Part shown: positions 3,964-23,097 of the stretch, piece after piece | Numbering within the stretch: the first letter of the stretch is position 1 | Layout of the letters: each line of letters begins with the position of its first letter | UHGV virus genome: UHGV-0267581 | Direction: 5' to 3' (one strand) | Origin: a virus | DNA length: 30,715 bases | Program-made: the position numbers and the translations under genes | Notes under the pieces: generated by a model | The model's input: the letters and a program-made list of their open reading frames with translations, nothing else | Told to the model about the DNA's origin: nothing | The model's database searches: none

Positions 3964-4317
3964 TTATCCATTCCACCGTGATTTTTTTGATCTGGAATCG
4001 ATATGCGTAAATGTTTTATATTTTCCTAAGCCGTATTGAGTAGGATATTTCCCATCAAGATAAGCATGAACAATATCAGGTGAGACACCCTTGATAACAA
4101 TGTCAGCCGCACGGCCTCGAACGTGATAGCTATTGGCTGCCCCGCCTACATTCTTGTTATGAGTCGGGCAACGGTTGCCACTGTTAATAATCACTGGTTT
4201 ACCGAAGTGCTCTCGTACATCCTCAAGAATTACCAGTAATTCAGCGTCAATTGTATCATAATCACATTTTCCGCATTTACATTTAAATTCCTTGCGAGAA
4301 AAATGTTTGCTTAACAT
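3964..4317 (-). CDS. endolysin, peptidase M15-type (putative L-alanyl-D-glutamate or D-Ala-D-Ala metallopeptidase)
   Basis: Motif recognition: SGNRCPTHN ... SYHVRGRAADI ... FTHID gives the His/Asp/His zinc-ligand pattern of small phage M15 peptidases. Last gene before the terminator in the lysis cluster. Confidence 0.7.
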   Translation of the reverse strand: MLSKHFSRKEFKCKCGKCDYDTIDAELLVILEDVREHFGKPVIINSGNRCPTHNKNVGGAANSYHVRGRAADIVIKGVSPDIVHAYLDGKYPTQYGLGKYKTFTHIDSRSKKSRWNG

Positions 4318-5971: not shown

Positions 5972-8900
5972 TTAAGAAACAGTAATACCAGTAGTGGCTT
6001 TTTTAGTTACCATTACCGTTAAATCACTGATCCATGTGCTAGGCGTCCAGTTGTTGATTGCGCTTGATTGCACTTCAAAGGTCAAGGTCACAGCACCCTT
6101 ACCCGCTGGCATATCAATAACACCTGAGTAAAGACCAGTATTACCGCCATACGCCCTATTATACAACTCTGACCCATTCTTACGAACAATAAGGCGACAG
6201 GTGTCGTAAAACGTATTATTGTTCGACCCTTCACGCGCTCGCAATCCACCAAAACTAACAGCCGGAATAACGATTTGACGATCGAACTTGTGATCATCTT
6301 CAACGCGAACAGTGACCGTACCCTGTGGATAACCAGCATAACCATTATCAACGTTAACATCACGATGCGGGAACTTACGTCCAATCACCTTAACGAAATC
6401 ACCCTTAACCTGAGTAGCTTCAAGCATACCCTTAATAACACAGCTAGAGTTAATCGTGACGTTGTTCAGAGTACCAGAATCGGCAGTGATATTACCTTTA
6501 ACGGTTGCATTCATGAACGTAGCGGACCCGTTCTTGTTGATATGCCATCCGGTCGATCCGTTCCAGTTGGAAGACTGGATATAGTTACCGATTTTAGCGT
6601 TATCAATTGCACCGTTTACGATCTTCGCGTTAGTGATTGCCCCGTCCTGAATCTTCGCGCTGTTAATTGCAGCATTGCCGATTTTAGCCGTGGTAATCGC
6701 CGCATCATTAATCTGGGCTGTACCAATTGCAGCATTACGAATCATCGCATTATCGAGATAAACCTTGTTACCTTCGATACCAAACGGGCATACTTCCGAT
6801 CCGTTCTGTGGAGCTACCGCGATTTTATCAGCATTAAAGATGATTCTCGTCGGTTGCGCCGGATCGTTGGTTGCGCTCATGTGAATACCAGCCACGCGAC
6901 CATCTGCATTAACTGCCAGATTATATTTGCTGTTAATGGTTCCTTTCAAAGCATCGATTTTTACATCTGCTTCCTGATTCACGCCAGCAATCTTGCCATC
7001 CATTTCTACCCGAACTTGATCAATCTTGCTTGCGCTTGCTGCCTCACTGGTAGCAATTGCTTGTTTCAGGGTAGTAGCAGATGCGCTGACTTCGGATTTA
7101 ATATCGCCTTTCAGTTCAGCTTTAACCTGATCAATCTTAGTGGAGCTAGCTTGCTCGCTGGTAGCAATCAGACTCTTTAAGGTATTGGCTGAGGCTTGGA
7201 CCGTCTGCCCTGTTTCGGTAGTGATTTGCTTATGCATTGCATCAATTTTAGCATCGGCATTAGCGCCAGCTTGAGCAATAGCATCCGCGATAGTTTCATC
7301 TAAGCGGTCTTGTAAACCAATCAGGTCTTCCAGTGCTTCTTTGTCCTGATCGTCCCAGCTAATTGTAGATCTCATTTGCATGAAATAAGGTTCAGACCAA
7401 ACAGCATCATCCATACCGAAAATATCGTAATGTGCCGCACGAAGATAATAATCACCATCAGCCAAAACAAAGGAAGTATGGCTAACACTATTCGTGCTTA
7501 CTGCCCTTGCATCGGAGAAAGTGTTATCGGTTGCATACTGGATGATTGACCCTGCATAATCATGTTCTACGTCATCTGCCCAGCTAACAAACACACTATT
7601 AAAGCCACCACGCGCACTAAAACCTTTCATTGGCTTATGTTGTGGGTTGATAGCCACTAAACGCGCTGGGGCGCTCTCTGAGTTGTTATAGCCCTTAGCC
7701 GATACTTCTACCGTCAGTTGACGCGAAAGGCCGTTAAACTGGTTCATATCAAGCGTATAAGTCCATGATTCAGGATCGCGGGTACGGTACTGAATAGACT
7801 TACCAGCCTTGTTAGTCACCTTGATAATGTATGCTTCAAACAGGTCACTAAACTTGTTAGTTTCACCGTTGATCTCAACATCTAATTGTTGCTGATTTTC
7901 CCATTCGATAATCAGATCATTACCTTCGAAAGTTCCTGGCGTGCTACCCTGATTTTTGATTCGAATAACCGGAGTCGGCAATTCATAGGTAACAGTAGGA
8001 TTCTGGTTAATCAGTTCTACCCAATCGGATCGAGCGATGATACCGAAAGCACAAACTCGGTAATCATAAGAGCGATCTTTAGCCAGTGCATTGACACTGA
8101 AAATTTGCTGTGAAGTCTGACCGAGCTTAATCCAGTTAGGTGATCCGCTTACACGGTAATCAATCTGGAAACCGTAGCGGTTAAAATCTTCCGGTGCATC
8201 CCATGTCAAAGTAACGTTCTTACCATAGATGGTTTCACCAGTTGCCTTAATTCTGAAATTAGTAGGCTTCTGTACTGTCATTGAATCCGGTAAACCACTT
8301 GGTCTATTGTCTGGAGTTGCCGCATAGTTCAGGTCAGTATAAACTTGAGAATTATATTCTGTGGCGGTGATAGTCATCATCCCAGCAATACCAGAATCAA
8401 TCGAGCGATCAATTGCAGTAATACGCCATAAGGAATTATTCAGCTTCAATTCATCATAGGTTACGCTGATAACGTCCCAAACTTCGGCAGTGAATGCGTC
8501 AGTAGTCATAAAGCTGATAACCTGAGTGATACGAGATTTATTTCGTTCTACACTCGCAAGTTTATCAATCTGGGCTTTAGACTTAACAAAACGATATTCA
8601 ATATCTTTAGCGATAATTCGACCATCTTGACGAATAGTAGCATCGTTTTCAGCATCAGCCGGATAACGTAGCATTTGCTCTGAATAGTCAATTGATGGTT
8701 CTTGATACATCGCGTTAATGGTATTGAAATAACCGTTAGTGCCACCTGTTTTCAGTGATACCTTACCCATCATGATATTGTCTTCATTGAAGGTATGCTT
8801 AACAATATCAGGAGCATCCAGTTTCAGGGTAATTCTTCCGAAGGATTCGAACATCACCCCGCCGAAAGTCTGCATAAGGCTAGTCAAGTTCTCTTTAAAG

Positions 8901-14218: not shown

Positions 14219-14527
14219 TTACTTTACCTCGTTTTCAATTACCGCCGCATCTTTCATCAATGATGCTTGAGCAACTAAGCCGATTAATTCGCTGCGGACG
14301 CTAGTATACAATGCCTTAACTTGTTCAATAGATTCAAATACTGGCTTACCGTCTTCATCTTCAATACAACGAAGAATAGAGCGTTCATCACGGTCTTTTT
14401 TATCAGTATTGAAAACATGTTCATTAAATTCTTGTACCGACATAGGGCGAGCATAGAACGTAAATCCTCCGAGGGTTAAAGATTCACGTTTCGGAGAAAG
14501 AGCTTTCAGCATTTCATTCAGATTCAT
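14219..14527 (-). CDS. tail assembly chaperone (gpG-like, 102 aa)
   Basis: Small acidic protein immediately upstream of the tape measure; the downstream frame is open in -1. Confidence 0.6.
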   Translation of the reverse strand: MNLNEMLKALSPKRESLTLGGFTFYARPMSVQEFNEHVFNTDKKDRDERSILRCIEDEDGKPVFESIEQVKALYTSVRSELIGLVAQASLMKDAAVIENEVK

Positions 14528-14572: not shown

Positions 14573-15079
14573 TTAAGAGATTTTCAAAGTCTGCTTAGTG
14601 CCAGTCTTCTTAATGTTATTGAGGAAAGCAGCCGGAGGATTGCTTAACCAATAGTAATGAAAACCGCTTTGCATACTGTTATAAGGAACAGTGACAGCAG
14701 CACCACCCAAATTAACGGTTATATTCCCCGCTCTACCGTTCTGGAGATATACAGCCATAGTAGGAGTACCGCCATTGAATTGACCAACGATAACGCCAAT
14801 CAGACGCCCTACGCCCACGTTTTCGGGGTTCTCCATAGATCCTTTACCGCGCATGTCAGTTACTGGATAGTTTGAAGCAGTTACACCCCAGTTATTACCC
14901 AATGAAGTAGACCACGCAGCAGTAGCTACAACCGTATCCATACCACGACCACACATCGCACTCATGTTAGCTGGGCGACTAACCTTTAATGCGTTCATTG
15001 CTGCGCTCATCCATCGTTGACCAGTTACAGAAACAGCAGATGACCCGACCCAGCCAGGCTTATTAACGACATTCGCCAT
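14573..15079 (-). CDS. virion structural protein of unknown role (168 aa; Gly/Ala/Ser/Thr/Asn-rich, almost uncharged)
   Basis: GGAG SD 8 nt upstream; lies between the tail-tube candidate and the chaperone gene. Confidence 0.5.
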   Translation of the reverse strand: MANVVNKPGWVGSSAVSVTGQRWMSAAMNALKVSRPANMSAMCGRGMDTVVATAAWSTSLGNNWGVTASNYPVTDMRGKGSMENPENVGVGRLIGVIVGQFNGGTPTMAVYLQNGRAGNITVNLGGAAVTVPYNSMQSGFHYYWLSNPPAAFLNNIKKTGTKQTLKIS

Positions 15080-15094
15080 TTTGATTACTCCAAT

Positions 15095-15121
15095 AAAAAA
15101 GCCCCACCATTAAGGCAGGGC
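15095..15121 (-). terminator. intrinsic terminator downstream of the tail-protein extension (GCCCUGCC-UUAAU-GGUGGGGC then U6 on the minus strand)
   Basis: 8-bp stem with two G-U wobbles, 5-nt loop, U-tract; near-identical copy at 20930-20955. Confidence 0.6.
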
Positions 15122-15127
15122 TTATAA

Positions 15128-15250
15128 TTAATCTTTAGCCTTGCGGCTTCGTTTAGCTGTGGCTTTCGCCGTAACTTCTTCTACTTCTGGAATCACCACC
15201 GCTTCATGTTCCGGCTGTGGTTCCGGTTCGGGAAGTTCTTCGTTAGTTCA
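15128..15250 (-). other. in-frame recoded extension after a TGA stop (39 codons: TNEELPEPEPQPEHEAVVIPEVEEVTAKATAKRSRKAKD, ending TAA)
   Basis: Hand-translated; same frame as the upstream gene, no internal ATG, UGA-ACU-AAC context and C-terminal VTAKAT...RK.K motif shared with the extension after the capsid gene. Confidence 0.55.
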
Positions 15251-15721
15251 TCCGGCAGTGAAGATTTGCTGTTTCAGCGGAGCACCATCCACCGCGAAGG
15301 TAAACTCTTTGGTTACAACTTCTTCATCGCCACCGTTCATAGCAACTTTAGAAATGAAGCCGTTGAAAGCGGTGCGAATACCAGTCTGTTTTGCTGCGTC
15401 AACGTAATATTCTACTTTAATCTGAATACGAGTACCGTCTTCGGCAGCTTTGATCAGTTTTTCATGTACCGCATCGCCTGGGATGTAGTTAACGGTCAGA
15501 GTCAGATCAGGAACGTTCAGCTTCCCTACCAGTTTACGGTTATACTGAGAAGAGAAGGATTTAACTTCTACAGTACCGCGCTCGATACCAGTTTCAGGAA
15601 AACCAGCACACTCTTTAATTTCTTCGTAGCTTTCGTGGTCGAGAGCGGTATTAGTGGTGTCCGCGTGATAGAACAGACTTACCAGACCACCAGTAAAAAT
15701 ATCTTTGAATTGCTGAGACAT
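15248..15721 (-). CDS. major tail (tube) protein candidate, 157 aa
   Basis: AAGGGGTAATTCT SD context shared with the other abundant late genes; size and position fit a tail-tube protein; carries the TGA-readthrough extension. The role (tube versus other abundant virion protein) is inferred. Confidence 0.5.
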   Translation of the reverse strand: MSQQFKDIFTGGLVSLFYHADTTNTALDHESYEEIKECAGFPETGIERGTVEVKSFSSQYNRKLVGKLNVPDLTLTVNYIPGDAVHEKLIKAAEDGTRIQIKVEYYVDAAKQTGIRTAFNGFISKVAMNGGDEEVVTKEFTFAVDGAPLKQQIFTAG

Positions 15722-15777: not shown

Positions 15778-18700
15778 TTATTTAGTTGCTTTCAGTTCGG
15801 CAATTTCTTTCTGTAATGCTTCGATCTGGGCTTTATATTTGGCGTCCATTTCCTGCATAGCTTTGATGATTAAAGCATTGACAGCAGAGTTAGAAATAGT
15901 CTTGATTGCTTCTGGATTTTCTGGATCTTCGGTGGATTGAATACCTACTGCTTCCGGCAATACTTCTTCCAGATCCTGAGCAATAATACCTACTTCGCGT
16001 TTAATCACACTACGGTCTTTAAGAGATTTAACTTTATCGTAGGTGTAGACTTTCAGTGAGTTTACTTTCTCTAATGCGCCGTCCTGTAATTCTTCCTTGT
16101 TAATCTTCAAACGGGAGTCAGAGCGAATGTAAACATCGTTAAACGAACCGTTACGACCTGCGGTAAAGTCACCAGCAGCGTTAAAGTCAAAGTTAGTATC
16201 ATGAACATGGAGACGAACAAGAGCGTTACCGATAGTACCGTCAGGAACGTGCACACCCATTGCTGCAATGTGATATTTACCCCAATGCGTCGCTTTCCAT
16301 ACGTTATGTGCCGAGTTGGTGGATTGAGGACACCCAACCATAAGACCAGCAGCACGGTCACGCCAGCTAGCCCAACTACCGCCAGCAACTTCACCACGAA
16401 TCAGGCCATTACCGCCACCGGTTACAGTACCAGATTCCAACTGGATCATTTTATCTGCAAATTTCCACATCTGGGCTTGTTTCTGACCACGGAAGCGAAT
16501 AGCACCAGCATCATCGCAGTACATCAAGCCTAACTCTAAACCGTTCGGATCTCTAAACCAGATGTGCTTATTGCCAGTGCGTTTAAACTCAATATCAGCA
16601 CCGTTGATAGTGATATTACCGCCAGTGTGAATTGCTTGAGGCTTAACAGTACCGTTGATGGCAAACTCAATTGCCGTAGTACCCGGACCGCCCGGACGTT
16701 GGGTATACCAATGCCAACCGCTTTCATCAGCACATTCAAATACTTGTTTACGAGCATCAGCGCCCCATGCACGAATATTGAAACTAGAAGTAGCTGTACC
16801 CTTACCCCAGCGAATCAGACCAGCAGATTCCAAATCACCGAAGAATTTAGTTTTAATCGCACCAGTTGCTAAAGTACGTTCAGTGGTGAAGTGAGCACCT
16901 TTACTATCTTCAAGCTGTATAACGTTATCACGAGCGTTATTGCTATCGCCCCAATGACTCAAACGGAAATAGTCGCGGGATTGTCCAGCACCAGCATCAA
17001 ATGTTAAATATTGGCCTTTAATGTATGTGTTTCCAGCAAAACGAGCAGCACGACTTGCACGTTCTAAGACTAATGCACCTTCGTTACCATCACCACCCAA
17101 AGTAACATTACCGCTACCCAGATTGTAAATGAATGGACGATAGCCGTTCCAACCACCAAATTTATCATTTTCGGCAGTAGACAGAAGATATACGTTTTGA
17201 CCATCATTACGCCAGAATGCACCATAGTTACCGTAAATCATACGGAATGCATCACTGTTAGCAGCTACATATTGACCATTGGTGTATACAATTTTGGTAG
17301 CACCTGTGCTTAAAGATACTTGACCACTTGCTTCTAATTTAACAAAGTTTTTACCTTCGTCACTATACCATTGAAAATCGTTAGTATCTGTAGAACCAAA
17401 ACCAAACCAGCCTTGACGTTTATTAGCCCCGTCTCGCTGATCCATATATTCAAAATAGTTACTACGACCAGTAGGACGCCACATACGAATCGCGTTATTG
17501 CCTTGCAGATGAAGTCTATCGACAAATAAACCATCACTACCAACAATTTTTAATACTTCTTTTTGGTCGGTGGAACCAGTAGCCAAACGATACACATCAC
17601 CTTGAACAGTTTCATGCCATATTGTTTCCGCCGCACGACTGCGGAATTTACGCATATATTTTTTATTGTTGTCTGGTACGTTATTAAGGCTCACAATATC
17701 ATAGGTTGCTTGTGAGTTATTATCAAACATCAACGTTCCGGCTTTGTTTTCGGTGTTGAACATCGTAATAACACGAGCATCGGTAACACCAACAGAAGGT
17801 TTAACGAGAGTTAATTCAGGAACATCATGTACTGTCAGAGTAACGCCATCAGTTTTACCGTATTCGACAATAACGTTATCGGTGTAACGACCGTAGTTAA
17901 CGTAGATATCGTAGTTATCACCGGAAGTATTAACCGCAAATACTTGATGAACGTTCAGAGCATTTCGACGATAAGCAGCAATACTAACGCCTTTCGGGTT
18001 ATTGTTACCGGAACGGATGACAATTTCTACAAAGTCAACCTGATCATAAGAGTTAACGTTATAACCATTACCACCGAAGATACGAAGCATTACCATTCGA
18101 CCATTCTGTGGGATCGTAGCGGTTGCGATCTTGAAGTATCCACGAGTAGCATCACCAGAAGGAACGGTCATTCTAACGTTCTTGATGAACATCTGATCAA
18201 CTTCGGCTTTACTATACACACCCAATTCAGTCGGAGTCGGCTTATCACCTTCGTGATACATGCGGTAGCTGAATCGCTTATTACCATCTTTATCAAAGCC
18301 ATAGGTTTTAACTTGAGATGAGCTAGACCCATAGTGGAACTCAAAACCGCGACCGTGTGCTTTACCGCCAGAATGAGGAATGTTAAGGATTAAGTTACCC
18401 CAACCTTCGGCATTGTTTGGACGGAATGCACCAAAATAATCAAGGTTACGAGCACCAGCATCATCAAAATAGTTAGCTGTTTTGGTTAACAGATAGCCGT
18501 GATGGTAAGTGTTGGTATTCTTCTTGATGTAAGCAGCATCGGCACTACCTTCAATAGAATCAATTCGCTGGTTAGCTGCGGCAATTGCGGCATCAGTAGA
18601 AGATTTATTCTGGTCTACCTTGTTGTTAATTGCTGTATGGTTGCTATTAACTGTCCCCGTAAGATTGGTGATCTTCGTGTCGGCATCGCGTTTATTATTT

Positions 18701-19278
18701 GCTACGGTCGTTTCTATGGCTGATTTATTTGCTGAGACAGTATTCGTTAAGTTAGTAACGTTGGTATTAGTCTGATCAACTCGTGCATTAATATCTGTCT
18801 TGTTCTTGTTAATTGTTGCGTTGATAGTATCGCGGGTTGAAGTAATAGTCTGATTCAGTTCAGTCTTAGCAGCCGCCAGAGCGTTAGCCGCTTCGGTTTT
18901 ATTGTTACCTACTGTGGTAGTCAAAGCATCAATTCGTTTGTTGGCTGCGGTGTCGCCAGCAGTGATTGAAGCATTGAGAGCATCACGGGTAGAAGTGATA
19001 GTCTGATTCAGTTCAGCTTTAGCACTAGCCAGATTATTAGCGGCTTCTTGTTTGTTGGAAGCAATAACACGGTCAGTGCTAGTTTTGTTATTGTCTACTT
19101 TCGTATTCAGTTCAGCGTGTTTTTCTGGAGAAACACTAATTTGGACTACGTTATTATTTTTGTCTTTGGTGTAAATCACATGATCCGCCAACTGTAAGGC
19201 GATTTCACCCTGTGATAATTGTTCCGGCGTTGGTTTTTTACCCGCCGTCTGTGTGCGTTTAAATTGGATTGATTGCAT
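15778..19278 (-). CDS. side (L-shaped-type) tail fiber with C-terminal intramolecular chaperone, peptidase S74-like (1166 aa)
   Basis: C-terminus YIRSDSRLKINKEELQDGALEKVNSLKVYTYDK... matches the autoproteolytic chaperone signature known from phage T5 pb1 and endosialidase tailspikes; N-terminal 51-residue tandem repeats (ELNQTITSTRD twice); two KPTPxELG fiber-anchor-like motifs (residues 15-22 and 346-353). Confidence 0.8.
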   Translation of the reverse strand: MQSIQFKRTQTAGKKPTPEQLSQGEIALQLADHVIYTKDKNNNVVQISVSPEKHAELNTKVDNNKTSTDRVIASNKQEAANNLASAKAELNQTITSTRDALNASITAGDTAANKRIDALTTTVGNNKTEAANALAAAKTELNQTITSTRDTINATINKNKTDINARVDQTNTNVTNLTNTVSANKSAIETTVANNKRDADTKITNLTGTVNSNHTAINNKVDQNKSSTDAAIAAANQRIDSIEGSADAAYIKKNTNTYHHGYLLTKTANYFDDAGARNLDYFGAFRPNNAEGWGNLILNIPHSGGKAHGRGFEFHYGSSSSQVKTYGFDKDGNKRFSYRMYHEGDKPTPTELGVYSKAEVDQMFIKNVRMTVPSGDATRGYFKIATATIPQNGRMVMLRIFGGNGYNVNSYDQVDFVEIVIRSGNNNPKGVSIAAYRRNALNVHQVFAVNTSGDNYDIYVNYGRYTDNVIVEYGKTDGVTLTVHDVPELTLVKPSVGVTDARVITMFNTENKAGTLMFDNNSQATYDIVSLNNVPDNNKKYMRKFRSRAAETIWHETVQGDVYRLATGSTDQKEVLKIVGSDGLFVDRLHLQGNNAIRMWRPTGRSNYFEYMDQRDGANKRQGWFGFGSTDTNDFQWYSDEGKNFVKLEASGQVSLSTGATKIVYTNGQYVAANSDAFRMIYGNYGAFWRNDGQNVYLLSTAENDKFGGWNGYRPFIYNLGSGNVTLGGDGNEGALVLERASRAARFAGNTYIKGQYLTFDAGAGQSRDYFRLSHWGDSNNARDNVIQLEDSKGAHFTTERTLATGAIKTKFFGDLESAGLIRWGKGTATSSFNIRAWGADARKQVFECADESGWHWYTQRPGGPGTTAIEFAINGTVKPQAIHTGGNITINGADIEFKRTGNKHIWFRDPNGLELGLMYCDDAGAIRFRGQKQAQMWKFADKMIQLESGTVTGGGNGLIRGEVAGGSWASWRDRAAGLMVGCPQSTNSAHNVWKATHWGKYHIAAMGVHVPDGTIGNALVRLHVHDTNFDFNAAGDFTAGRNGSFNDVYIRSDSRLKINKEELQDGALEKVNSLKVYTYDKVKSLKDRSVIKREVGIIAQDLEEVLPEAVGIQSTEDPENPEAIKTISNSAVNALIIKAMQEMDAKYKAQIEALQKEIAELKATK
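18821..19060 (-). repeat. intragenic tandem direct repeat in the fiber gene (two units about 153 bp apart)
   Basis: Identical 18-mer TAGTCTGATTCAGTTCAG at 18846-18863 and 18999-19016 with similar flanks; encodes the duplicated ELNQTITSTRD segments. Confidence 0.7.
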
Positions 19279-19359: not shown

Positions 19360-20193
19360 TTAGTATTCGCCGAAATCGATCCGGTCAGTCTTAGCCACTG
19401 CGCCAATTTCGCTAGGTGTCGGTTTCTCATTGGTGGAATATACCTTGATCCATTCAGAACGACCGTTTTCCTGAATATTTCGGACACGTAAACGCGGTGC
19501 GCCAGAAGTATTACAGGTTAATTGCCATGCGCCATGCTCATTAGCTTGAAGGTGAATTAATGCTGTGTCGGTTGAATATGGATTACCGCTAGCAGTTCCC
19601 TTGTAAGTTACGAAACGGTTTCCGGCTAATGCCTCGCTGTCAATCGGACCCGTGAATGGATTTACACCAGCACCCAAACCAAAATCACCCTGACGTAAGA
19701 TCCGGCCTTCGGTAGCAATACCCCTTGCCAAAATCCCGCCATCTGGTTCAAGTTTAAATTCCAGTGTTACAGCTTTGTTATCACTACCACGGGTTTTATG
19801 TGATGTGACGTAAGCATCGAATATACAAAAGTACCCTGTGTTAGCAGCACTATAGCCAGAGTTCACAACATAGAACATACGGAAGCGTAAAGGTGTTTTA
19901 TCCTCTACCGCTTTCATCAACATTGCTTGATGTTCATCGTCAAGAACACGGTTTAATGTGAGTGTTGTCGGTTCCAGTCTACGATAACCAGCAAGTTTCC
20001 CCGTAGCGTCCTGATCGTACTCTTCCAGAGTTTCTATCTCTGTGGATTCGGTTAGCGTAGGGAATGCTGCGATGTTCTCCATAGAACTAAAGCTAGGATC
20101 GAAAAAGTCGACCTGATTGTCTATCTGGTTAGAGATCGACACTTCAACATGTGATCCAGTGAAAATATCTAAGTTATCTTGTGTAATATTCAT
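19360..20193 (-). CDS. virion structural protein (277 aa); possible tail or collar protein with a C-terminal KPTPSEIG motif
   Basis: Late-operon position between connector-size genes and the fiber; the C-terminal NEKPTPSEIGAV resembles the motifs in the fiber; followed by a hairpin. Confidence 0.5.
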   Translation of the reverse strand: MNITQDNLDIFTGSHVEVSISNQIDNQVDFFDPSFSSMENIAAFPTLTESTEIETLEEYDQDATGKLAGYRRLEPTTLTLNRVLDDEHQAMLMKAVEDKTPLRFRMFYVVNSGYSAANTGYFCIFDAYVTSHKTRGSDNKAVTLEFKLEPDGGILARGIATEGRILRQGDFGLGAGVNPFTGPIDSEALAGNRFVTYKGTASGNPYSTDTALIHLQANEHGAWQLTCNTSGAPRLRVRNIQENGRSEWIKVYSTNEKPTPSEIGAVAKTDRIDFGEY

Positions 20194-20899: not shown

Positions 20900-20929
20900 A
20901 GTTACCCCCTTTATGGAGTATTTACATAC

Positions 20930-20955
20930 AAAAAAGCCCCACCGTTAGGCAGGGC
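20930..20955 (-). terminator. intrinsic terminator downstream of the capsid extension (GCCCUGCC-UAAC-GGUGGGGC then U6)
   Basis: Near-identical to the hairpin at 15095-15121, including both G-U wobbles. Confidence 0.6.
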
Positions 20956-20961
20956 TAATTA

Positions 20962-21093
20962 TTATTCTTTAGTTTTACGTTGTTTTTTAACTGTGGCTTT
21001 CGCCGTAACCGTCTGAGATTCTTCTTCCTGAGATGGAATCAGATTTTCTTCCCCCAAATCGGGGGAAGGTTCAGATGGTTCTACGTTAGTTCA
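20962..21093 (-). other. in-frame recoded extension after a TGA stop (42 codons: TNVEPSEPSPDLGEENLIPSQEEESQTVTAKATVKKQRKTKE, ending TAA)
   Basis: Hand-translated; same frame as the capsid gene, no ATG, conserved UGA-ACU-AAC context and VTAKAT basic tail shared with the 15128-15250 extension. Confidence 0.55.
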
Positions 21094-23097
21094 TTCAGCG
21101 GAGATGTGAAGAACTTTCAGAGCTTCCGGCTGAACTACGGTGAAGTCCAGGTCTACCCAGATACGCGGAACGATAGCAGACTGTGCGCGGTAAGTGGTGT
21201 CGTCCATATCCAGTTCCAGACCACCCCATTCACCGATCATGATACCGGAGAAGTCACCCAGAACGATGTGGTCTGCCGGAATAACGCCAGAAGTAACTAC
21301 ATCGTAACCAGCCAGTTTGCCGTTTTCGATGATATAACCGGAAACGCCGTTATCTTTCAGGGTAGATTCCAGTTCAGCAGCAGTTGCACCGCTCATTGCA
21401 AACTTGATGGACTGTGCCGGAACGCCAGCGTCGGTCAGTGCTGCAATTTCTTTCAGGAAGTCTTTGTAGCTAAAAGCGGCTTTCTTAGTAACGCGACCAC
21501 CGTCTACCAGTTGCTTAACCAGACCTTTCGGACCGCGCTCGTTGTCTTTGTCAGACAGAATCAGTTGTTCCAGTTTGATCCGAACAGATTTGTTAATGTG
21601 ATCAGTGATCAGGGTAGCAATATTCGGAACAGTTTTCAGAGACTGACGGCTGATCGGGTTGCCACCAGCAAAAGTTTTCGGAGCCATTTTCACGTTTTCA
21701 AAGCTAGCCTTCGATTCGGGGGCACTTCCATTTTCATCAACAAAACCAAAGGCTTCGACGCTGGAAGCAGTCATTTTTGGTACTGCAATCGGGCTATTCA
21801 GACCAGACAGAACAGTCACACCCAGACGACCCAGAACAGACTGTGGAAGCAGCATTTCTACATAGGATTCGGTCAGCAGTTTTTCGTCGGTTACAGCGGT
21901 CAGAGTAGCTTTGGTGTTACCTTCGGAAGCAGCACGCAGAGCAGCAGCCGGAACGAATACAGAGCCACCGCGAGCAGCACGACCACGCTGCATTGCAGCA
22001 CCAGCAGCCATAGCGGAATATTCAGCTTCGTTAGCGCCGAGCACGTCGCCATCTACCAGGGAGCGGATTACGTTATTAAGATCGAAAGTTTTTTCCATGA
22101 TTTGTTCCTTATTAATTTGTTCGTTATTACGTTGAACATTGGTAATGTTATTTAGTGCCTTAGTGCGGAATGCTTCCGGCGTCATATCTTTAACTGCCAA
22201 TGCGCGTTCTAATTCTTCGTCGTTAATATTTAACTCACGAGCGATTGCTCGGATTTCTTCTTCGTCTTCTTCGGAACGTTCAGCCACTTCTTCTATTTTT
22301 TCTTCTTCAACCGGAGCGGCTTCACGTTCTTCTTTTACTTCTTCTGTTTCCCGAACAGTTGAACTATCATCATCAACACTTTCAGGATGTTTAGCGTCTT
22401 TTCCGTCTTCGAGATTTTCATCTTCTTTATTCTCTTCAACTTGGCGCTCTTGAGTTTCTTCTACTTCCGGTTCTTTATTTTCTTCTACCGGAGTTTCTTC
22501 AACCTGAGCGGGTTCTTGTTCTTCTTTGATTTCTTCGATTTGTTCTTTAGTCATATCGCGTTTAGCCTCCAAATTAACTGTGATAGTATTTAGAGAGCGA
22601 TTCAGACCCACGGTGTCGTCTGCGGGAACAGACACCCATGAAACCTCGTGAGGAATCCATTTAGTAACAATCAATTGTCCTTTGGTGTAGTCGATGTGAT
22701 ATTCTTTAATGTCATAACCGACAGAAATTTTTTCCATCGTACCTTCAATGACTTTATTACGAATATCATTAGCCAAAGTGCCATGCTTAGAGAATTTAAC
22801 CAGAGCACGACCTACGTTATCCGCATCGATTCGAGCGTTACAAACGACACCAATATGATTATCGAAATTATGATTGAACAGCAACGGAGCGTTATTATTC
22901 AGACGAGACAGATCAACCGCTTCCGGTGTATGTACCAGAATTTCATCTAATACCACCATTTCTTGATTTTGCTCATCCCAGAATTGGCGCTGATAAGGCT
23001 GTTCACTGGAGAAAGCAATTTCAAATTCGTATTGATCATTCTGCCCTTCGTTAATAACTCCACCGTAACCGTTAAGATCGCGGCGAAATTTAAGCAT
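21091..23097 (-). CDS. prohead protease / acidic linker / HK97-type major capsid protein encoded as one 668-aa polypeptide
   Basis: N-terminal roughly 170 aa resemble HK97-family prohead proteases; a roughly 120-aa Glu-rich low-complexity linker follows; the C-terminal roughly 300 aa resemble HK97-fold major capsid proteins; sits after the portal in the canonical order. Confidence 0.8.
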   Translation of the reverse strand: MLKFRRDLNGYGGVINEGQNDQYEFEIAFSSEQPYQRQFWDEQNQEMVVLDEILVHTPEAVDLSRLNNNAPLLFNHNFDNHIGVVCNARIDADNVGRALVKFSKHGTLANDIRNKVIEGTMEKISVGYDIKEYHIDYTKGQLIVTKWIPHEVSWVSVPADDTVGLNRSLNTITVNLEAKRDMTKEQIEEIKEEQEPAQVEETPVEENKEPEVEETQERQVEENKEDENLEDGKDAKHPESVDDDSSTVRETEEVKEEREAAPVEEEKIEEVAERSEEDEEEIRAIARELNINDEELERALAVKDMTPEAFRTKALNNITNVQRNNEQINKEQIMEKTFDLNNVIRSLVDGDVLGANEAEYSAMAAGAAMQRGRAARGGSVFVPAAALRAASEGNTKATLTAVTDEKLLTESYVEMLLPQSVLGRLGVTVLSGLNSPIAVPKMTASSVEAFGFVDENGSAPESKASFENVKMAPKTFAGGNPISRQSLKTVPNIATLITDHINKSVRIKLEQLILSDKDNERGPKGLVKQLVDGGRVTKKAAFSYKDFLKEIAALTDAGVPAQSIKFAMSGATAAELESTLKDNGVSGYIIENGKLAGYDVVTSGVIPADHIVLGDFSGIMIGEWGGLELDMDDTTYRAQSAIVPRIWVDLDFTVVQPEALKVLHISAE

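Follow-up and report, generated by a model that had tools for sequence, protein, structure and literature searches.

The stretch of DNA analysed here, UHGV virus genome UHGV-0267581 (30,715 nucleotides (nt), hereafter the window), carries an Escherichia coli prophage element whose major capsid gene and major tail tube gene both end in a TGA codon, followed in the same frame by a short open extension and an intrinsic terminator. We propose that UGA readthrough produces this extension and that selection acts on it, a reading to which we assign a probability of roughly 70%. A first-pass annotation of the window had suggested readthrough at the capsid gene, and comparative sequence tests lend it strong but indirect support: the UGA and the A that follows it are conserved, insertions and deletions keep the frame, codon usage in the extension is gene-like in frame 0, and the alternative frames are closed.

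The capsid gene comprises 668 codons in the list of open reading frames (ORFs) and lies on the minus strand (21094-23097), as do the other genes of the window and both modules described below, unless stated otherwise. It encodes a fusion of a protease, an acidic linker and an HK97-type capsid domain, with Pfam matches to Peptidase_S78 (residues 40-162) and Phage_capsid (residues 410-664). In the annotation of the Prokaryotic Genome Annotation Pipeline (PGAP), its orthologue is a 'phage major capsid protein' that stops at the TGA. The proposed recoding site (21090-21093) consists of the UGA at 21093-21091 and an A at +4 (21090), and is flanked by the residues ...VLHISAE before the stop and TNVEPSEPSPDLGEENLIPSQEEESQTVTAK after it. 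Past the TGA, the frame continues for 42 codons (20965-21090; TNVEPSEPSPDLGEENLIPSQEEESQTVTAKATVKKQRKTKE), which are organized as an acidic spacer rich in Pro, Glu and Ser, TNVEPSEPSPDLGEENLIPSQEEESQT, followed by a basic tail, VTAKATVKKQRKTKE. A Pfam search of this extension returned no domain. It contains no in-frame ATG or GTG and a single TTG, and is closed by tandem stops, TAA TAA (20959-20964; 20964-20962 and 20961-20959), ahead of an intrinsic terminator (20929-20956), for which our scan gave a stem at 20956-20935 of 9 base pairs (bp), 6 of them G-C, followed by TTTTTTG. The coordinates given in the first-pass annotation for the TGA (21091-21093), for 42 open codons without ATG, for the TAA (20962-20964) and for the terminator all hold. 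On the opposite strand, an ORF of 391 codons with a TTG start (20980-22155, plus strand) runs antisense to the capsid gene and is most likely explained by sense-strand codon bias.

The same arrangement recurs after the tail tube gene, as had also been claimed. This gene has 157 codons (15251-15721) and is of the lambda gpV N-domain type; its product matches PHROG 158 'major tail protein' (E = 3e-21), as well as Phage_TTP_11 and Phage_TTP_12 in Pfam, both under the cut-off, and PGAP calls it 'phage tail tube protein'. On its 3' side lie a tail-chaperone gene, a -1-frame ORF and an ORF of 784 amino acids (aa), which is probably the tape measure. The second candidate recoding site, the UGA at 15250-15248 with an A at +4 (15247-15250), stands within TGA ACT AAC G (15250-15241), between the residues ...QQIFTAG and TNEELPEPEPQPEHEAVVIPEVEEVTAK. 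The extension of 39 codons (15131-15247; TNEELPEPEPQPEHEAVVIPEVEEVTAKATAKRSRKAKD) is a paralogue of the capsid extension and has the parts TNEELPEPEPQPEHEAVVIPEVEE and then VTAKATAKRSRKAKD; it is closed by a TAA (15128-15130), beyond which our scan placed an intrinsic terminator (15093-15123) with a stem at 15123-15099 of 10 bp, 6 of them G-C, and a T run. The capsid and tube modules can be aligned over their length and share an identical 19-nt core, GTTACGGCGAAAGCCACAG, encoding VTAKAT. PGAP stops both genes at the TGA and leaves the ~130 nt past each without annotation, an omission of both extensions that is relevant to how such genomes are annotated. The window also holds a paralogue of the tube protein: the N-terminal ~160 aa of a 277-aa ORF (19363-20193) are 30% identical to the 157-aa protein and match PHROG 158, and the C-terminal ~115 aa have no family match. 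This ORF precedes the fibre gene and does not lie beside the chaperone and tape-measure genes.

Within the capsid extension of the window, frame 0 alone is open, with two stops in frame +1 and five in frame +2. By direct reading past the capsid TGA, the +1 frame (GAA CTA ACG TAG) meets a TAG after 5 codons and the -1 frame (ATG AAC TAA) meets a TAA after 3 codons. Frameshift access to the extension was thereby ruled out; because both shifted frames close at once, only in-frame readthrough reaches the downstream sequence.

Taken alone, neither the open stretch of 42 codons nor the 10-mer TGAACTAACG is beyond chance; with one mismatch allowed, the 10-mer was found 3 times against 2.3 expected. 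TAA closes 22 of the 24 minus-strand genes scored (with an immediate second stop in six), and TGA the other two, namely the capsid and tube genes, both with the module. The significance of the arrangement comes from this exclusive use of TGA at two of 24 genes, from the presence of the module on both, and from its invariance in 63 related copies.

These copies were collected from several sources. The element is an E. coli prophage, and 55 complete genomes out of 5,426 carry it. The copy of strain UTAK-14 (NZ_CP168998) occupies ycdX at ~3.157-3.190 Mb; its tube gene stops 83 nt short of the following gene and thus seems to be the allele devoid of the module. A scan of IMG/VR yielded 31 loci with capsid domains 85-99% identical, a scan with a degenerate VTAKAT pattern added further copies, a profile scan reached capsid alleles down to 39-43% identity, and a metagenome scan contributed another 17 copies. 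The degenerate pattern applied to genome contigs gave chance matches only, among the matches listed. After collapsing to distinct sequence contexts, 63 copies were obtained, 39 on capsid genes and 24 on tube genes (L022 included).

In all 63 copies the stop is TGA followed by A, with TAA, TAG or a sense codon in none, and the codon after the TGA is ACT in 49 and AAT in 14. Every extension is open in frame in spite of there being ten different lengths between 28 and 45 codons (28, 33, 42, 43, 44 and 45 on the capsid gene; 36, 39, 40 and 41 on the tube gene). Their alignment needs at least seven independent insertions or deletions (indels), each one a multiple of three, and frames +1 and +2 contain between one and six stops each. 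Of the 62 copies tabulated for their ends, 60 close with TAA and two with TGA followed by TAA. Across 35 distinct junction contexts, T-G-A-A is the only fully invariant run: all 15 upstream positions vary, and the first codons past the stop are conserved, with T or N at position 1 and E at position 4. The first-pass annotation had given UGA-ACU-AAC as the stop context; invariance is limited to the UGA itself, an A at +4 and a U at +6, and a nine-base signal is too strong a description. The alignment of homologues that it had proposed came out in favour of readthrough, in that extension and UGA-A are kept wherever the module is present while flanking positions vary, and no homologous copy has a closed downstream frame.

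More distant relatives separate the extension from its surroundings. The same TGA and extension are found on a capsid allele that is 39% identical over the whole protein (L081, L083, L262-L265, L283 and L289), and the metagenome relative L295 keeps the tube extension next to a different terminator; the extension is thus not merely carried along by the terminator. Conversely, a tube allele ~60% identical and devoid of the module ends in TAA right at the terminator in 12 of 12 loci (L003, L006, L010, L014, L015, L017, L019, L024, L025, L029, L031 and L032, at ~14.4-15.9 kb), which means that TGA and extension occur jointly or not at all. The capsid genes of these same 12 prophages keep the UGA extension, and their tube genes indicate that the extension is dispensable on the tube. 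At one further locus (L030, ~8283), the capsid frame is interrupted upstream, either as a pseudogene or by an assembly error, with the C-terminal TGA and extension intact.

To assess coding potential, we scored codon usage in bits per codon with a table built from 20 genes of the window, the extensions being excluded. Capsid extensions scored 0.37 in frame 0, -0.81 in frame +1 and -1.12 in frame +2, and tube extensions 0.31, -0.86 and -1.07, respectively. Genuine coding windows of 42 codons gave means of 0.374, -0.76 and -1.26, with frame 0 the best in 99.7% of them. The capsid extension of the window reached 0.39 on its own (-0.71 and -1.28 in the other frames) and its tube extension 0.37 in frame 0. 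Codon usage of the extensions in frame 0 therefore equals that of genuine genes. Substitution patterns carry less information: the Nei-Gojobori ratio of nonsynonymous to synonymous differences (pN/pS) was 0.63 when capsid copies were compared with tube copies; among capsid copies it was 0.71, and among tube copies 0.44. These values correspond to weak purifying selection, as expected for a low-complexity and probably disordered peptide, and are not decisive alone. Since this dN/dS signal is weak, we place the weight on frame maintenance, stop usage and codon usage.

In one alternative, nothing past the TGA is translated, the segment being a 3' untranslated region (UTR) of ~130 nt that was moved with its terminator by recombination, and the open frame and the TGA being historical accidents, for instance the remains of a recently truncated longer C-terminus. 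The module does travel with the terminator, mosaic junctions coincide with it, many copies are near-identical and third-position bias is weak, all of which speak for such a spacer. However, it would not account for a frame kept through at least seven indels, for gene-like codon usage in frame 0 only, for a TGA-A that is invariant amid varying neighbours in a genome otherwise using TAA, or for the persistence of the module on the 39%-identical capsid allele and with a different terminator, and we regard it as improbable.

The conserved sequence might also act as RNA, with or without being translated, in the form of a small RNA derived from the 3' UTR, an element of messenger RNA stability or processing, or a spacer between ribosome and terminator. 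Consistent with such a role, the 19-nt core identical in both paralogues contains a small hairpin with a GAAA loop, and the segment ends in an intrinsic terminator, like many small RNAs. Folding showed that a hairpin starting 11-24 nt past the UGA can be formed in every variant. All long capsid forms share a G+C-rich hairpin, which in the window is CUUCCCCC-GAUUU-GGGGGAAG (21048-21068), starting ~24 nt past the UGA; in the short capsid form and in the tube copy, other hairpins start ~11-12 nt past it. The z-scores of these hairpins range from -1.2 to -5.2, and only the short capsid form, at -5.2, folds clearly better than shuffled sequences, so that strong local structure exists in some variants. 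The hairpins are nevertheless mutually non-homologous, Rfam gave no match at E <= 1, and the core accepts substitutions that change the amino acid (VKAKAT, VTVKAT and VTAKAP instead of VTAKAT). A role as RNA would further leave the maintenance of the frame, its codon usage and the exclusive TGA-A unexplained, and we hold it to be similarly unlikely.

A hairpin after the UGA in each variant, together with the selenocysteine machinery of E. coli, could also suggest that the UGA is read as selenocysteine through a selenocysteine insertion sequence (SECIS), or else that it is reassigned or suppressed by means of a phage suppressor transfer RNA (tRNA). We consider this exceedingly improbable: the hairpins differ in sequence, loop and spacing, the Rfam search, which covered SECIS, gave no match, no tRNA is encoded in the window, the hosts are ordinary E. 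coli, and for the 24 minus-strand genes TGA is confined to the ends of the capsid and tube genes.

The codon usage of frame 0 and the maintenance of the frame would be equally compatible with an independent small peptide, not fused to the upstream protein, that is produced by reinitiation or from a non-AUG start. Against this stand the lack of ATG and GTG in the capsid extension of the window, the absence of a conserved start or Shine-Dalgarno sequence across the variants, and the fact that conservation begins at the first codon past the stop; such a peptide would also give no reason for a TGA-A upstream of it in particular. This explanation, too, appears very unlikely.

Readthrough at the UGA is in keeping with what is known of this codon. 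As the first-pass annotation had stated, UGA is leaky, being the most frequent readthrough stop in bacteria, and in E. coli a following A makes its misreading by tRNA-Trp particularly likely (PMC5289835). In the record filed as Qβ (NC_001890), the coat gene stops at UAC UGA ACU GCA, the hexamer UGA ACU being identical to that at both sites of the window; this agrees with the earlier statement that the Qβ A1 protein arises by UGA readthrough.

We infer from sequence the existence, amount and role of the extended proteins, and with them the readthrough itself, the tRNA, the fraction, the surface display and the function. Most ribosomes would stop at the UGA through release factor 2 (RF2) and yield the normal capsid or tube subunit. 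A minority would decode the UGA with a near-cognate tRNA, most likely tRNA-Trp and favoured by the A at +4, and would translate another 28-45 codons until stopped by a strong TAA, doubled in most cases (TAA TAA), immediately ahead of the terminator. Both polymerising virion proteins would thereby exist in two forms, each from a single gene. With Trp inserted at the stop, the junctions would read VLHISAE-W-TNVEPSEPSPDLGEENLIPSQEEESQTVTAK in the capsid protein and QQIFTAG-W-TNEELPEPEPQPEHEAVVIPEVEEVTAK in the tube protein, and a rate like that of Qβ would put the appendage on a few percent of the capsid and tube subunits. The appendage would consist of an acidic spacer rich in Pro and Glu, probably extended and disordered, and a tip rich in Lys and Arg (VTAKAT-x-K-K/R ... 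K). It is probably displayed in few copies on the outside of head and tail, given that the extra region of T7 10B and the C-domain of lambda gpV lie on the virion surface. As to its role, we suggest with low confidence a weak electrostatic binding to polyanionic surfaces such as lipopolysaccharide (LPS), capsule, mucus or extracellular DNA; this is the weakest step of the proposal.

Several observations weigh against UGA readthrough under selection, or against parts of it. The 5' context of the stop varies among the junctions, and a conserved stimulatory RNA structure downstream of the stop, looked for by folding the variants, was not found. A 3' stimulatory structure is optional for readthrough and is found in many eukaryotic viral cases; we know of none that is required for Qβ. 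Variable sites are distributed over the three codon positions as 11/17/16 in capsid extensions and 10/6/14 in tube extensions, without a strong third-position bias, and the identity of the 19-nt core in the two paralogues could be due to gene conversion or to constraint on the RNA instead of the peptide. Many of the copies are closely related, and the number 63 overstates the independent observations. Natural fusions with a sense codon were sought among 5.8 billion proteins, with W at the position of the stop, and this insensitive search gave one candidate, which ends at the stop. A megablast search of the cultured-phage collection with the capsid region found no match and hence no cultured member of the clade there; the best match by tblastn was 43% identical, and the clade is known from prophages and metagenome contigs only. 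Finally, the function of the appendage is wholly inferred, and its likeness to an AT-hook is weak: variants with GRPPKAK match Pfam AT_hook at 14 bits against a cut-off of 17.4 and no other family, so that the resemblance is both sub-threshold and limited to some variants.

Among bacterial viruses, readthrough of a structural gene is known in Qβ-type RNA phages. In tailed phages, to our knowledge, the long forms of capsid and tail proteins that are made by recoding all arise by frameshifting. Neither a full-text literature search nor a 2016 review of recoding (PMC5009743) yielded a case of stop readthrough in a structural gene of a tailed double-stranded DNA phage. Our proposal resembles Qβ A1 in that UGA is the stop of a structural gene in an E. 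coli virus, with UGA ACU in common (NC_001890), and a small fraction would be extended in frame, the extended form being in our case a prediction from sequence. Both extensions open with Thr and a Pro-rich stretch, which in Qβ forms a polyproline II helix (PMC8067240). The minor form of Qβ is flexibly displayed on the capsid, as we expect for the present one, and its readthrough takes place at about 1 in 15 (PMC8067240), or ~5% according to the annotation of NC_001890. The two systems are unrelated and differ in other respects. Qβ is a single-stranded RNA levivirus with another coat fold, whereas the element described here is a tailed double-stranded DNA prophage with an HK97-fold capsid; the Qβ extension is a folded domain of ~200 aa required for infection, whereas the present ones have 28-45 aa of low complexity and no folded domain; and here one module sits on two different genes.

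The frameshifted structural proteins of tailed phages (T7 and T3 10A/10B, Lactobacillus A2, Listeria PSA, A118 and A500, and SPP1 gp17.1*) provide the other point of comparison. In this group each major structural gene gives two products, of which a minority is C-terminally extended, and the identity of the genes and the C-terminal position match those found here, where the second product is predicted. In PSA, A118, A500 and A2, the capsid and tail-shaft genes are both recoded (PMC5009743), which confirms what the first-pass annotation had stated for PSA. In T7 10B, the additional region is exposed on the surface of the phage (PMC8811829), as is the SPP1 extension (PMC8718954). Those systems use -1 or +1 shifts at slippery or CCC_UGA sites, whereas no shift site is present here and the alternative frames are closed. 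They mostly add immunoglobulin-like or fibronectin type III domains (T7 being an exception), whereas the present extension is a short peptide, acidic and then basic, without a Pfam domain, and the same homologous peptide is placed on head and tail. A related comparison is offered by lambda gpV, whose C-domain is attached at residue 157 and protrudes outside the tube (PMC8718954). The tube protein of 157 aa corresponds to the gpV N-domain (residues 1-156), and the extension starts at the attachment point of the C-domain (PMC8718954). In lambda, however, the addition is a folded Big_2 domain that is present on every subunit, constitutively and without recoding.

Other routes to a basic tail are seen in a sister clade (L252-L261, L267 and DCP80), whose capsid genes are 40-43% identical and end in TAA. 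In L253, L254, L256, L261 and L267, a Lys/Ala-rich tail is encoded in frame (...GTPAEAKAAKQ, ...GTPAEVKAALKASA, ...AEAPAEAKAGK, ...NKATAAGK and ...GEAEAGETRKAK). Five members have a tail in the -1 frame (L001 at 7740-7880; L252, L257, L259 and L260 at ~4080-4160), with the sequences KAKAKAKAKAETAE, TGAQAAPVRKPRALKVTK, TGEQASPAKVKKPRALKVK and AAPVKKSKSASG; each of these is closed by a TAA a short way 5' to the terminator, and the -1 frame gives the best codon-usage score in five of five. In these genes, the -1 frame is open from a few codons ahead of the stop, at GAA AAA AAG (A_AAA_AAG, as in L257), GAA AAA AAA (A_AAA_AAA), or GAA AAG/GTA AAA (A_AAG/A_AAA, with A_AAG in DCP80), and A_AAG and A_AAA_AAG are classic -1 shift sites of E. 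coli (PMC5009743). A programmed -1 frameshift is therefore probable for these capsid genes, judging by their sequence. We treat the tails of the two clades as analogous; homology between them is not demonstrable. A constitutive tail was found on an unrelated capsid protein of 280 aa (PHROG 422; L061, IMGVR_UViG_2630968595_000002, reverse strand 288-1127), which ends in ...AKAEVTAKATAKK (...EVTAKATAKK) with a terminator directly after it and without recoding. For phage capsid and tail proteins, in-frame decoding, -1 frameshifting and +1 frameshifting serve equally as routes to an extension (PMC5009743). The sister clade shares this interchangeability of in-frame and frameshifted routes, to which stop readthrough would add a further one.

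The record from which L001 was taken (PQ671644.1, 1-16786) is 'Escherichia phage DCP80', filed under Straboviridae/Tevenvirinae with 141 kb. Its first part, however, encodes a portal of the lambda type, a protease-capsid fusion of the HK97 type and a lambda-like tube protein, and the record may be chimeric or misclassified.

If UGA readthrough of the capsid and tube genes is correct, the element would be a naturally occurring and genetically tractable example of programmed readthrough at UGA in E. coli, acting at two genes of one virus through one shared peptide module. Its family would allow a comparison of readthrough, -1 frameshifting and direct fusion as routes to a small basic tail on an HK97-type capsid. 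The module would also suggest a minimal scaffold for display on coliphage heads and tails. A bolder and rather doubtful extension of this idea is that of a portable UGA-gated display cassette, made up of a leaky stop, an acidic rod-like spacer, an AT-hook-like tip, a double stop and a terminator, which would move by recombination between capsid and tube genes and between capsid alleles, the copies per virion being set by the termination efficiency of the host. The host factors concerned would be the RF2 allele, the growth state and tRNA-Trp, and the charge of the virion and its stickiness to LPS, mucus and extracellular DNA would then depend on the physiology of the producing cell. In related clades, -1 frameshifting or direct fusion would have led to the same outcome.

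The surroundings of the tube gene showed several additional features. Between the head-completion genes and the tube gene lies a tail fibre gene of 1166 aa (15781-19278), whose product has a T4 gp34-like trimerisation domain and an S74 intramolecular chaperone. Past the tube terminator, the window carries a gp38-like adhesin gene (14576-15079), which is absent from the UTAK-14 relative, where three small ORFs are found instead; with this difference in the adhesin region, mosaic junctions coincide with both extension-terminator modules. The tail-chaperone gene of 102 aa ends in GAG GUA AAG UAA (14219-14240), and its -1 frame opens 13 nt before the stop and runs for 383 nt into the next ORF, which looks like the canonical G-T -1 frameshift at an A_AAG beside the stop. 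Finally, two pairs of direct repeats were noted towards the ends of the window, at 519-558/960-999 (83% identical) and at 30531-30561/30680-30710 (81%), the first of which contains a small G+C-rich palindrome resembling a terminator.

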